The position numbers were made by a program, and so were the translations under genes. Source: an uncultured Mycoplasmatota bacterium (GTDB lineage: Bacteria > Bacillota_I > Bacilli_A > RF39 > UBA660). Taken from it: a DNA stretch of 64,000 nt. This document shows, piece after piece, positions 7,122 to 55,777 of the stretch. The notes beneath the pieces were generated by a model, which ran no database searches, was not told the origin of the DNA, and worked only from the letters and a program-made list of their open reading frames with translations. The stretch covers positions 854 through 64,853 of the forward strand of contig CANSRH010000007.1 of assembly GCA_947649365.1 (NCBI GenBank), read 5' to 3'. The first letter of the stretch is position 1, and each line of letters starts with the position of its first letter.

Positions 7122-7658
7122 CTACTTCAAATATTCCTCATCAATTTGTTCAATTGCCTCTTCACTGGCATCACTTAAAATATCCTCATCACTAATTACT
7201 TCGTAATCATCTTCCTCTTCCTCAATAGAAACTTTAATTTTAGTATCTCCTACGACTTCTACCCCAAGTTCCTTTTCAACATTTAGCTGAACAATTCCAT
7301 CATTCACTGTTACATTCGTAACGGTTGGTTGTTTTAAACTTCGAACAATAATTTCTTCATTATTTGTTAAAGTAGCATTATCTTTTAAACGAACAGGCAT
7401 TTTATCTTGATAAGTAAACGTTTGTGTACTCACTGCTGTTCTAGTATCATTATCATAAGAATACCAAACATTGACATCAAAACTTCCATCAATATTTACA
7501 ATTCCACCATTATTAATCCCATTAAAATGATGATTAATCACCCAACATCCTAAAATAGTATCTGGTTTTAGTTCTGGTGTAATTGAAAATGCATTTACGC
7601 TTGTTTTCTTAGCTTTTCCAATAATTGCTTTTGTCACAATTTCTTTAAAACTAGCCAT
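7122..7658 (-). CDS. cotE: Outer spore coat morphogenetic protein CotE
   Basis: [18 protein letters not shown]...[11 protein letters not shown]...DVNVWYSY...acidic C-terminal tail aligns along its length with Bacillus subtilis CotE (MSEYREIITKAVVAKGRK...ILGGWIINHKY...DINVWYSY...acidic tail). Confidence 0.8.
7620..7645 (-). promoter_or_regulatory. Candidate sporulation-sigma (SigE/SigK-type) -10 element upstream of cotE
   Basis: The minus strand reads GGTGCATACATTAAAATAGAGGAGGG, then 9 nt, then the ATG. CATACATTA fits the CATACA-T / CATAnnnTA -10 consensus of mother-cell sigma factors; it lies inside the annotated cotE ORF (plus 7629-7637), so it fits only if translation starts at the internal Met at 7622. 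The -35 element was not convincingly identified. Confidence 0.3.
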
Positions 7659-7766
7659 TTGTAACCCTCCTCTATTTTAATGTATGCACCCCACCCAAAT
7701 TTGTGCACTAGAGTTTGTTTTTTATTAAAATCTATGTTAAGATATAATGCAAAAAAGGAGAATTTT

Positions 7767-8546
7767 ATGAAAAAAGAAAACACACTTAAATTGAAAGAAA
7801 GAAAGAAAGAAAGAAAGAAAGAAAATAAACCTTTAAAAACAAGAATAAAAATAACAATCGCTGGACTGAGTGCAATTGCTACACTGCTTTGCGGTTGTGG
7901 AAATAAAGATACACGTATTGATAACATCGATAAATACTATATACTTCGAGTTGCTGATGAGAGTGGTACAAAAAATAATATCGTTTACACCATTGATAAT
8001 CGTATAGCTAATCATAACGACTGGTGGATAGATGGAAAAATTTACTCTTATAGTGAAAATTATTACGAAAAAGGTACTTACTCCTCACTTGAAAAATTTT
8101 CACCTATCCAATTTATTCCTTATACAGAAATTTTAGAAAAAGATACTTATTATAAACATAATGTGGCAAATAATACAGAAAACCAAGCATTTATGGCACA
8201 TGCCTTAGAAACATATGCTTTTCCAACACACATAATTTATACTTTTGGAGAAACAACTTATGAATATCAGAGCCACGTATATGAAATCGAAAATCAATTA
8301 ACAGAGGAAAAACGTTTCGTAATTGGCTATCCATTAATTCCAGAAGAAACAAACCCAACCCAAATCTATGATGCACTAACAGCAAGTTTTATTTATATAC
8401 AAACGAACGAATTAGCCACTACTATTCCTTCTGAATTGGAGAAAATGGAAACTTTCACGCTTGAAGAAGGACGTACAATACTAGATAATATTGTTGCATT
8501 TGAAAACAATGCTATTTCTAGAAATCAAAACCTTGAAAATAAGTAA
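7767..8546 (+). CDS. Putative lipoprotein of unknown function carrying a (GAAA)8 tract near its 5' end
   Basis: The ATG at 7767 is preceded by AAAAAGGAGA. The N-terminus MKKENTLKLKERKKERKKENKPLKTRIKITIAGLSAIATLLCGCGN has a long basic n-region, an h-region and a Cys-containing lipobox-like LLCGC. The ORF track extends the ORF to 7680 without RBS support. Confidence 0.55.
   Translation: MKKENTLKLKERKKERKKENKPLKTRIKITIAGLSAIATLLCGCGNKDTRIDNIDKYYILRVADESGTKNNIVYTIDNRIANHNDWWIDGKIYSYSENYYEKGTYSSLEKFSPIQFIPYTEILEKDTYYKHNVANNTENQAFMAHALETYAFPTHIIYTFGETTYEYQSHVYEIENQLTEEKRFVIGYPLIPEETNPTQIYDALTASFIYIQTNELATTIPSELEKMETFTLEEGRTILDNIVAFENNAISRNQNLENK
7793..7824 (+). repeat. Perfect tetranucleotide repeat (GAAA)8 inside the lipoprotein CDS (codons 10-19)
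   Basis: Counted directly in the sequence: eight uninterrupted GAAA units that encode KERKKERKKE. Confidence 0.9.
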
Positions 8547-22228: not shown

Positions 22229-23485
22229 TTAAATAATAACAATTCGATAAGGATTCTCTATTGTTCCATCACCACTTTGGTATTGTACATCTGATTTTAA
22301 ATAGAACGTTGGACGAATATTATTTATATTAGAAGAATACATCACTCGATTTTGATTAGGATAACCATTAGGATATAATCCCCAAACAGCTTTTCCATAA
22401 GTGTTATCCACATAATTTTGTTCAGGTGAAATCGTCCATTCATAATATTTTTCTTCTAACAAATATAACCAAGCTTTATTTATATAGTCTTGTGCACTAT
22501 TGTAAATACTAGTAAACCAATAATTTTTTTCTATCGAAAAAGCATAATCAGAAGGATACATTAATCCAATATTAGATAGAAAATAAATATTTCCTCCACT
22601 CTTACCACTTATATTACTTCTCTCAACATTGTAAAATTGTTCAGCCGTATAAGTAGAATATTGATTATTAGCTGGTGCTCCTAAATACCATTTGGCTTGC
22701 CCTATAAATTGCTGATAATCTTTAATAGTATTCCAAAATACAGTATTTAAAACATCAGTATTTAAAGGACTTATCTCCCATATATTGCTACCATTGCTTT
22801 TATTCCAACGATACCCTTTCTTGCTTGGAGAATTTGTAGCATTTTCCAAAAAACCACTTTCCTCTTCAATATAAAAATCTGCTTTAATAAGTTTAACCCG
22901 ATTCTCATATTCTCCAGTTTCACTAGATTGAGTTGGTATCACTCCAATCACTCGATATAAATTATCATTCGTACAATTCTCACTACATCCAAAATAAATA
23001 TAATTATCTGGGTTAGATCCAACATATCGATAATCAGTTAAACTTGGTGTTTGTTCTGTTGATGCATGATCTATTTTTTCTATTCCTGCATTTGTACCAC
23101 TTAAACTAATTATATAATTATTCAACATGATTCCAGAAAAAAACTCTATTGTACATTTCACTTTTCCTTCATTGATATTTCGAATATTGGGTCCCCATTC
23201 TTCATAATCCCAATATCCTTCTGCTCCTTTATCACAAGTTATACTTACATCATACGCTCCCTTACTAGGTAACGTATTTATACTTTCTCCATCCATTGTA
23301 ATGGCAAGTTCCAAATCTCCACTAACAAACGATGGTACTCGTCCTCTTAGGACATTGAATGTCTTTTCTTCTTTATATAAAGCAAATGTTTTGTATAAGG
23401 TAATACTTCCTACTACAATTAGGATTCCCACTATACTAAATACTACTTGTTTCTTTCTTCTTTTGTTTTTACTAAACCTTTCCAA
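22229..23485 (-). CDS. Membrane-anchored secreted protein of unknown function, candidate phase-variable (paralog of 54530..55777)
   Basis: The 418-aa ORF has a signal anchor VVFSIVGILIVVGSITL and the C-terminal motif GDGTIENPYRIVII. In the ORF track it can only start at TTG without an RBS. An upstream ATG with a GGAGAG RBS is separated from the body by a G10 tract; see findings. Confidence 0.55.
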   Translation of the reverse strand: MERFSKNKRRKKQVVFSIVGILIVVGSITLYKTFALYKEEKTFNVLRGRVPSFVSGDLELAITMDGESINTLPSKGAYDVSITCDKGAEGYWDYEEWGPNIRNINEGKVKCTIEFFSGIMLNNYIISLSGTNAGIEKIDHASTEQTPSLTDYRYVGSNPDNYIYFGCSENCTNDNLYRVIGVIPTQSSETGEYENRVKLIKADFYIEEESGFLENATNSPSKKGYRWNKSNGSNIWEISPLNTDVLNTVFWNTIKDYQQFIGQAKWYLGAPANNQYSTYTAEQFYNVERSNISGKSGGNIYFLSNIGLMYPSDYAFSIEKNYWFTSIYNSAQDYINKAWLYLLEEKYYEWTISPEQNYVDNTYGKAVWGLYPNGYPNQNRVMYSSNINNIRPTFYLKSDVQYQSGDGTIENPYRIVII

Positions 23486-23507
23486 TCCTTCTGGTTTACT
23501 TAATGTA

Positions 23508-23517
23508 CCCCCCCCCC
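23508..23517 (-). repeat. Homopolymeric tract: C10 on plus strand (G10 on the coding minus strand) between an upstream ATG and the body of the 22229..23485 gene
   Basis: Counted directly in the sequence. Confidence 0.9.
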
Positions 23518-23642
23518 AGAAGTCTTGTTCTGGTTGGGAGATTGTTTTTTATCTTTTTCATTTCATCTCTCCTCTATTTTCTATTATTATTCTAACGTAA
23601 TCTTTATAGAAAAACAACTCAAAAAAAGAAAAACAGTAAGAA

Positions 23643-48411: not shown

Positions 48412-48466
48412 ATTTCCTCCTTCAATTTTTTTATAATAAACTATATGAAAAAGAAAAAAAAAAAGA

Positions 48467-54529: not shown

Positions 54530-55777
54530 CTACATGTCAATGCGATAAGGATTCTCTCTTGAACCATCACCACTTTTATATTTTATATTTGCTTTTAAAT
54601 AAAATACTGGTCGAACACCTTTCCCAACAGTAGAATGAGCCATAATCACTTCTCCTGTAGAAGAAATACTAACAACATAATACCCACCGTTTATACCCGA
54701 ACTCTCTTGAGTAATAACCCATTCATCGTATTTATTTTCTAAATTATAGAGCCAAGAACCAGATAAATAATTTCCAGTATAAGATTTTATAGACAAATCA
54801 AAATAATTGGTTCCAAGAGAATAGCCATAATCAGAAGGATACATAAGACCTATCTTTCCAAGAAATTGCAACATTCCTTTATTTACTCCTTTTGTAGAAG
54901 AACGTTCAATTTGATAAAACTGATTGGGAGAATAATTTTCATAACTACCATAAGTAATCGAACCCAAATACCATAAAGTATCTTCTACATAATTCTTGTA
55001 TTCCCCAAAACTATTCCAATAGACATCATTTAATACGTTTCTTTGTAACGTACTTTCTTCCCATTTAACCGTAGAATTATGATTCCAACTATATCCGACT
55101 CCATTCGTTGCAGAAGAAGAATTTTTTAAAAAACCACTACTCGTTTCTGTATAATTGCTTGCTTTAATTAACTTCACTCGATTCTCGTATTCTCCATCCA
55201 TACTTTTTTGAGTTGGTATCACTCCAATAATTCGATATAAATTGTCATCTGTACAATTCTCACTACATCCAAAATACACATAATTATTTACTTCTTCATT
55301 CGATCCAACATATCGATAATCTTCTAATGCTGGTGTCTGTTCTGTTGCTTCATGACTTACCTTGACTACATGATTACTCGTATCACTTAAATCCTTTATA
55401 TACTCACTAAAATATTTCCCTCGTTTAAATTGGATGGTACATTTTGTCTTTGTTTCTTTAATATTCTGAAGATAAGGTCCCCATCTTTCATAATCCCAAT
55501 ATCCTTTGGCCCCTTTATCACAAGTTATACTTACATCATACGCTCCCTTACTAGGTAATGTATTTATACTTTCTCCATCCATTGTAATGGCAAGTTCCAA
55601 ATCTCCACTAACAAACGATGGTACTCGTCCTCTTAGGACATTGAATGTCTTTTCTTCTTTATATAAAGCAAATGTTTTGTATAGTGTTATACTTCCTAGT
55701 ACTATCAGTATCCCTAATATAGAACCAAGTACTACTTTCTTGTTTCTTTTGTTTTTACTAAATTTTTCTAATTTCAA
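54530..55777 (-). CDS. Membrane-anchored secreted protein of unknown function, paralog of 22229..23485
   Basis: It shares a near-identical N-terminal ~95 aa (signal anchor through ITCDKGA) and scattered conserved blocks (YFGCSENCT.DNLYR.IGVIPTQ, ENRVKLIKA, IGLMYPSDY, GDGSRENPYRI). The start was set at the TTG 10 nt after AGGAGAG (MKLEKFSKNK); the ORF track extends it to 55876. Confidence 0.55.
   Translation of the reverse strand: MKLEKFSKNKRNKKVVLGSILGILIVLGSITLYKTFALYKEEKTFNVLRGRVPSFVSGDLELAITMDGESINTLPSKGAYDVSITCDKGAKGYWDYERWGPYLQNIKETKTKCTIQFKRGKYFSEYIKDLSDTSNHVVKVSHEATEQTPALEDYRYVGSNEEVNNYVYFGCSENCTDDNLYRIIGVIPTQKSMDGEYENRVKLIKASNYTETSSGFLKNSSSATNGVGYSWNHNSTVKWEESTLQRNVLNDVYWNSFGEYKNYVEDTLWYLGSITYGSYENYSPNQFYQIERSSTKGVNKGMLQFLGKIGLMYPSDYGYSLGTNYFDLSIKSYTGNYLSGSWLYNLENKYDEWVITQESSGINGGYYVVSISSTGEVIMAHSTVGKGVRPVFYLKANIKYKSGDGSRENPYRIDM

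Follow-up and report, generated by a model that had tools for sequence, protein, structure and literature searches.

Slipped-strand contingency loci are textbook material for a few mucosal pathogens, namely Haemophilus, Neisseria, Campylobacter, Helicobacter and Mycoplasma, and in gut commensals phase variation has mostly been ascribed to DNA inversions. The examples from Haemophilus influenzae include the CAAT tract of lic1A, the CCAA tracts of hgp and the AGTC/AGCC tracts of mod. In the opa genes of Neisseria, pentanucleotide CTCTT repeats lie in the region coding for the signal peptide, and lengths that are out of frame abolish the mature surface protein. The lipoprotein switches of Mycoplasma, such as Vaa of M. 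hominis and P78 of M. fermentans, carry poly-A tracts in their 5' coding regions. The contingency loci of H. influenzae are described as tetranucleotide tracts with surface-related targets (PMC2651432; PMC11868660). Phase variation in Mycoplasma is also listed in PMC11868660, and a study on Staphylococcus aureus reports that reversible, length-dependent SSR frameshifts switch genes off and on (bioRxiv 10.1101/2025.07.08.663602).

We found no report linking the Erysipelotrichaceae, or the bacterial group to which our host belongs, with SSR phase variation; matches to GAAA in a gonococcal paper were PCR primers and were discarded. Here, we describe a perfect (GAAA)8 tract at the start of a lipoprotein gene, found within a stretch of 64,000 nucleotides of DNA, hereafter the window, whose host is an uncultured spore-former of low GC content within the Bacilli. 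From comparison with related alleles, we argue that the tract is probably a slippage-driven translational ON/OFF switch of the phase-variation, or contingency, type.

Results

A perfect tetranucleotide tract near the start of a lipoprotein gene

The features of the locus, in window coordinates, are the following.

7122 to 7658, minus strand: cotE, divergent from the lipoprotein gene (Pfam E = 1e-47)
7743 to 7748, plus strand: putative -10 hexamer TATAAT of the lipoprotein gene, a candidate read by eye with no good -35
7755 to 7760, plus strand: strong Shine-Dalgarno AAGGAG, 6 nt before the ATG, read from the sequence and kept in contigs L001-L004
7767 to 8546, plus strand: lipoprotein CDS of 259 codons and a stop, from an orphan family without Pfam domain or structural match
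7767 to 7769, plus strand: translation start ATG, upstream of the tract, the sole start codon with an RBS before it and the start of database protein P0001
7767 to 7895, plus strand: signal-peptide coding region, residues 1-43, with an n-region of about 27 aa, hydrophobic residues 27-41 and a lipobox L-C-G before Cys44
7793 to 7824, plus strand: (GAAA)8, the proposed slipped-strand switch, encoding KERKKERKKE in the signal-peptide n-region; orthologous tracts lie at the same alignment position
7896 to 7898, plus strand: codon of Cys44, the predicted lipidated +1 cysteine, an invariant alignment column

The array is perfect by Tandem Repeats Finder (period 4, 8.0 copies, 100% matches), in agreement with the raw sequence, and no other tetranucleotide tract in the 64 kb window (GC content 31%) reaches four units. 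Across 200 third-order Markov simulations of 64 kb each, the longest non-trivial tetranucleotide tract had a mean of 3.3 units and a maximum of 5.25, and the eight units observed are thus real and non-random. They also exceed the published cut-off for tetranucleotides in phasome prediction, set at five or more units (PMC6321876).

The onset of the repeat is 26 nt into the lipoprotein CDS, downstream of the ATG, and both this position and the encoded KERKKERKKE, as given in the original prediction, agree with the sequence and its translation. The same prediction would have failed had the true start been located downstream of the repeat; the start, however, lies upstream of it, and out-of-frame lengths of the window allele contain no start codon in the mature frame. 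The database protein P0001 is identical to the product of the window and starts at 7767, and in L005-L009, equivalent GGAG/GAGGAG sites precede the upstream ATG. Another ATG at 7680, taken as the start in the mechanical list of open reading frames, was rejected; it is without an RBS and falls within the conserved promoter or leader region upstream of cotE.

Further signals were sought around the gene. The block at 7700-7745 is identical in the L003 and L004 orthologues, and a consensus promoter scan reported no full two-hexamer sigma-70 promoter in the intergenic region of the lipoprotein gene. The motif CCTCCTCTANTTTAATGTATGCA at window 7672-7694 consists of the cotE RBS and, on the minus strand, GCATACAT, which we take to resemble a -10 element of the sigma-E/K type; the motif is kept upstream of cotE even in relatives whose CotE shares just 48% identity. 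Probably it represents the promoter or leader of cotE, situated within the 108-nt intergenic region common to cotE and the lipoprotein gene. When DNA was scanned for the conserved cotE-promoter pattern, 10 loci emerged, none of them with the lipoprotein gene. Rfam produced 0 matches on the whole window, with no rRNA and no tRNA.

The product and its family

By sequence rules, the product is classified as a lipoprotein, and the original assignment to this class is upheld by a basic n-region, a hydrophobic stretch and a lipobox with an invariant cysteine. The predicted N-terminus reads MKKENTLKLKERKKERKKENKPLKTRIKITIAGLSAIATLLCG|CGNKD..., with 13 K+R and 4 D+E among residues 1-27 and a hydropathy of 1.5-2.2 over residues 27-36 (11-residue window). 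Cys44 is invariant across the family, aligning with S-G-C, S-S-C and A-G-C in the orthologues and, in the distant member P0011, with a classical lipobox, LSG|C. A cysteine at the -2 position of the lipobox (L-C-G-C44) is unusual, though permitted by the PROSITE PS51257 pattern. The PROSITE rule also places the lipidated cysteine within about the first 35 residues, a heuristic rather than a mechanistic requirement, and the cysteine of the window product, at position 44, lies beyond this limit. Both its position and the overlong n-region result from the tract-encoded insert, which lengthens the n-region: in L007, from which the tract is deleted, the cysteine is at position 26, following a short signal peptide of canonical form, MKNKFLKTRIYLVGLSALSVMLLSS|C.

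The mature domain has no match in Pfam, and its AlphaFold2 model, of moderate quality (pLDDT 66), has no match in the PDB. The family is tiny. It forms five 90%-identity clusters among 5.8 billion proteins, with differing lengths within clusters, and a profile search run exhaustively over 1.84 billion representative proteins returned 6 matches, five of them credible relatives; scanning the metagenome collection with a protein pattern recovered no relatives. Within the collection of species-representative genomes, there is a single relative, L017, which is tract-less and comes from wild mice.

The gene lies in the order cotE, lipoprotein, HIT, HerA, with a HIT-family gene and then a HerA/DUF87 ATPase gene downstream; no terminator-like site was found between the lipoprotein and HIT genes. 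In the close relative L022, the lipoprotein gene is absent beside cotE and a kinase-like gene stands there instead; the lipoprotein gene is accessory. The kinase-like gene (MERLYTNEKQLEKLPLYY... / MKGIHLTQEEIEKYPLFY...) lies beside the lipoprotein gene or replaces it at L022:1-912 (reverse strand), L010:2116-2949 and L013:3779-4470, and is absent from the window. The copy in L013 is interrupted by some 35 nt of inserted sequence, which could be a scaffolding artefact. The presence of this gene in some of the relatives makes the interval between cotE and HIT a variable slot for accessory genes.

Repeat number and reading frame

The 4-nt unit, not being a multiple of three, lies inside the open reading frame and downstream of the RBS-preceded ATG. 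When the gene was rebuilt in silico with 3-13 units, the full protein was obtained only with 5, 8 or 11 of them, giving 255, 259 and 263 aa, and any other number led to a stop after 13-29 codons, within four codons of the tract. The expectation that one unit more or less truncates the protein with an early stop and that three-unit steps are neutral is thereby borne out at the level of the code. At 6, 7, 9 and 10 units, the mature frame of the window allele is free of ATG, GTG and TTG between the nearest upstream stop and the lipobox; lacking a rescue start, an out-of-frame tract in this allele is a true null. Programmed ribosomal frameshifting and transcriptional slippage were rejected since, on direct reading of the sequence, the tract contains no slippery XXXYYYZ heptamer and no homopolymer of nine or more.

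Natural alleles in and out of frame

We compared the DNA of 17 related contigs, all with the cotE, lipoprotein, HIT, HerA synteny, and scored each allele as ON or OFF from the register of the RBS-preceded ATG relative to the conserved mature frame in the aligned 5' ends. The alleles, together with those of the distant member of the family, are listed below.

Window, L001, L002: 8 units, in frame; 100% identical DNA from three samples
L004: (GAAA)4 + GAAG, in frame
L003: (GAAA)3 + GAAG, out of frame; 96.6% identical to L004 over 3.7 kb and from a different SRA study
L005, L006: (GAAA)5, out of frame; from two runs, and one unit fewer would bring the frame back
L008, L009: degenerate GGAAAGGAAAGAAAGAAAAAGG, out of frame
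L007: no tract, in frame; a 37-nt deletion (1 mod 3) took the tract out, and the contig is 99.9% identical to L008 downstream
L010-L017: no tract (A7 only), in frame in 8/8 contigs
L031-L035 (P0011): no tract, in frame in 5/5 contigs; distant member in a different genomic context

The original proposal to compare repeat numbers between related strains thus yields 8, 4, 3 and 5 units, a degenerate tract and a deleted one, with both ON and OFF states in genes that are intact. Four diverged lineages carry the tract at the same position of the syntenic locus, and all the frame-changing differences among the orthologues fall within the tract region. In every OFF allele, the mature frame is open back through the tract and the mature ORF of 212-216 codons is intact. 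The closest contrast is between L003 and L004, which at 96.6% identity represent the same species and differ by one unit; a further unit would bring L003 back into frame, and the gene caller has there chosen an ATG further downstream, at a codon that reads ATA in the window. In L007, the 37-nt deletion restored the frame exactly, indicating selection for expression. Identical OFF alleles were recovered from independent samples (L005 = L006, L008 = L009), which argues against assembly error. Within the lineage of the window itself, exactly eight units were found in 4/4 of the consensus contigs with this protein, two of which (L001 and L002) come from other samples.

Two further observations concern the relatives. 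L010:1326-2072 and L012:3001-3735 differ in the mature part by an in-frame tandem indel of 12 nt (KDKI/KDKT duplication), giving 248 versus 244 aa; this constitutes a second, in-frame length polymorphism of the lipoprotein family, seen in a tract-less orthologue. The contig L030, when aligned with L008, is a mix of segments of 96.8% and 100% identity, with some 390 nt of the mature region missing; the contig is possibly a chimera or a genuine pseudogene with an internal deletion. The protein P0012 called on it (L030:943-1305) was considered as a read-through allele and rejected, the gene call having read TGA as Trp (genetic code 4) in a lineage that uses code 11.

Selection on the mature protein

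The dN/dS of the mature region is 0.16-0.28 in all pairs, OFF alleles included, and the value of 0.18 for the pair L003/L004 is the same as that of the adjoining HIT gene; together with the intact mature ORFs, this speaks for purifying selection and not for gene decay. Three independent OFF events and one restoration are all located within at most 40 nt of a 780-nt gene. Counted by contig, tract-less alleles are in frame in 9/9 cases versus 4/9 for the tract-bearing ones (Fisher p = 0.029); counted by distinct allele, 3/5 of the tract-bearing and 0/3 of the tract-less are OFF, a difference that is not significant (p = 0.20), and the contrast between ON and OFF states is therefore only suggestive. 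The DNA periodicity is perfect despite dS >1 between lineages, which points to recent expansion, or continuing expansion and contraction, of the repeat by slippage at the level of DNA and not to selection on the peptide.

A second SSR locus in the window

The original prediction had also placed a homopolymer tract in a second surface-protein gene of the window, and such a tract does exist, out of frame. Its features are the following.

22229 to 23561, minus strand: gene of a predicted single-pass membrane protein, with an RBS-preceded ATG at 23561
23508 to 23517, minus strand: G10 tract, 40 nt after the ATG
54533 to 55777, minus strand: tract-less paralogue

With the observed G10, translation runs into a stop after 21 codons, and G9 or G12 would give a single-pass membrane protein of 443-444 aa. 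The gene has no domain in Pfam. Its family is large, with at least 433 matches, and many of the homologues begin with '...GGG...' at variously called starts or break off just downstream. Two homologues from human-gut metagenomes (L028:401-450 and L029:78-110) have G9, which is in frame, and G10 at the same position. Read from its sequence, the G10 gene is a second candidate contingency locus of the window, at present in the OFF register, and its poly-G tract is a family-wide feature that recurs at different lengths.

A run of A11 at window 48454-48464 (T11 on the minus strand) falls between genes and was for this reason discarded as a coding switch. The run follows directly on the stop codon of an ORF resembling a SpoU-type methyltransferase and precedes a SpoVS-like ORF by about 45 nt, both identities coming from reading the translations.

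A putative element interrupting cotE

The cotE gene, which is intact in the window at 7122-7658 on the minus strand, is interrupted at the same nucleotide, after approximately codon 43, in contigs of two lineages.

L008:1262-1435: interrupted cotE
L009:676-849: interrupted cotE
L015:573-746: interrupted cotE
L030:674-847: interrupted cotE

The ends of the foreign DNA are homologous (90.7% over 129 nt), one of them with an XRE-type repressor ORF, and in sister contigs that are 99.8-99.9% identical to the interrupted ones, cotE is intact. From this comparison, the insertion looks like a site-specific mobile or gene-intervening element targeting a mother-cell sporulation gene, and we liken it to skin in sigK and SPbeta in spsM; the gerE 'gin' paper contains 0 occurrences of cotE.

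Discussion

The relatives of the window differ in tract length, some being in and others out of frame, with the gene otherwise intact, and it is for this reason that we regard (GAAA)8 as a probable slippage-driven translational ON/OFF switch. The switch interpretation put forward in the original prediction thus gains support from the ON and OFF tract lengths seen in intact and constrained related genes, and the similar behaviour of the G10 locus is counted in its favour. Under this mechanism, the tract would misalign by whole units during replication through slipped-strand mispairing. With the 4-nt unit placed after the RBS-preceded ATG but ahead of the signal peptide's hydrophobic core, one or two units more or fewer would put the ATG out of register, a stop would follow at most four codons past the tract and no lipoprotein would be made (OFF); a further slip could bring the frame back (ON). 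Changes of three units would make the charged n-region four residues longer or shorter, which the signal peptide is expected to tolerate, the tract being within the n-region. The outcome would be a mixed population of cells with and without the surface lipoprotein, on which selection by the host or by phages may act.

We infer the slippage process, its high and reversible rate at eight units, the surface exposure of the product and the selective agent from this arrangement. Eight units are reportedly, from the work of De Bolle and colleagues on Haemophilus in 2000, at the low end of the tracts with measured high switching rates. In the OFF alleles observed, the tract is short (3 or 5 units) or degenerate and slow slippage is expected; these alleles may be persistent nulls instead of fast switches.

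Of the other ways to account for these data, the one that deserves most attention is that of a polymorphic microsatellite in a dispensable accessory gene, knocked out by ordinary loss or drift and not by an adaptive reversible switch. The family is indeed tiny and restricted to one clade (the five clusters and six profile matches above), the gene is missing from the locus in the close relative L022, and L030 may have an internal deletion; the OFF tracts, with 3 or 5 units or a degenerate sequence, are at or below the usual threshold, and the contigs of the window lineage show no variation in the tract. We nevertheless consider this unlikely, as the OFF alleles retain complete mature ORFs with dN/dS of 0.16-0.28, similar to the housekeeping neighbour, and the tract has been kept at one site in four lineages separated by dS >1, with the repeat of the window perfect at 32/32 positions. 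The clustering of the three OFF events and the restoration within so short a region of the gene, and the exact return of the frame through the 37-nt deletion of L007, likewise speak against this reading.

Two more explanations, both weak, concern the tract itself. The repeat could be kept for its peptide, so that the charged, KERK-rich n-region tunes secretion or lipidation and the potential for frameshifts is incidental; the tract does lie within the n-region, a part tolerant of insertions and here unusually basic with its 13 K+R in 27 residues, and (GAAA)n gives K/E/R-rich peptides in all three frames. The conserved tract-less orthologues (L007, L010-L017 and P0011), however, have short canonical n-regions, meaning that the insert is not needed, out-of-frame alleles occur in nature, and selection on the peptide would permit synonymous changes, yet the DNA repeat is perfect; we find this account improbable. 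Even less credible, to the point of being very improbable, is a stable tract with out-of-frame alleles created by sequencing or assembly. The differences come as whole 4-nt units or as a clean 37-nt deletion, and the same OFF alleles came out of separate assemblies of different runs (L005/L006 and L008/L009). In favour of an artefact, most of the related contigs are low-coverage metagenome assemblies (3-5x in some contig names) and repeats are classic sites of assembly errors. Tracts of 12-32 nt are, however, at or below the typical k-mer size of de Bruijn assemblers and should not collapse.

It is conceivable, though we propose this only tentatively, that this clade of uncultured spore-forming low-GC gut Bacilli has a multi-locus SSR phasome of the Haemophilus/Mycoplasma type, including the GAAA switch of the lipoprotein and 5' poly-G switches in a large paralogous family of single-pass membrane proteins, in rodent and human gut metagenomes. 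If true, SSR contingency loci would, besides invertible promoters, be a general strategy of surface variation among commensal gut Firmicutes. The natural ON, OFF and locked-ON alleles of the lipoprotein and the poly-G locus suggest that the logic of bet-hedging applies also in an under-studied part of the gut microbiota, and the ON/OFF state in metagenomes could report on selection that hosts or phages exert on one particular surface protein. There is a practical side as well: automated annotation mis-calls such genes, with truncated starts in P0003, P0005, P0002 and P0015 and a wrong genetic code in P0012. The novelty is modest but real and consists of a new host group, an orphan lipoprotein and natural ON, OFF and locked alleles; the mechanism is not new.

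Among the known systems, the contingency loci of H. influenzae share with ours a perfect tetranucleotide tract in the 5' coding region where a change of one unit truncates the product, tract lengths that differ between strains with ON and OFF states, and a surface-related target. The tracts of Haemophilus commonly have approximately 10-40 units of various kinds, whereas here the unit is GAAA and present eight times; the host, in contrast to H. influenzae, is an uncultured low-GC spore-forming Gram-positive gut bacterium, and the target is an orphan lipoprotein known from sequence alone. The opa genes of Neisseria resemble the locus in having the repeat in the coding sequence of the signal peptide and in tolerating in-frame changes of length, but they are a multigene family of Gram-negative outer-membrane beta-barrels with a pentamer, and ours is a single-copy gene of a lipoprotein with a tetramer. 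With Mycoplasma, the locus has in common a surface lipoprotein of the low-GC Bacilli/Mollicutes radiation and an A-rich SSR frameshift in the N-terminal coding region; there, however, the repeats are homopolymers in large variable lipoprotein families of wall-less pathogens, as opposed to a tetranucleotide in a single-copy gene of a walled spore-former. The study on S. aureus concerns a pathogen and draws on thousands of genomes and functional assays, whereas the (GAAA)8 locus is approached through comparative metagenomics only; what the two have in common are length-dependent SSR frameshifts in a Gram-positive host. Set against these systems, the (GAAA)8 locus shows, at the level of sequence, those hallmarks of SSR translational phase variation that concern tract length, reading frame, truncation and ON/OFF polymorphism between strains.
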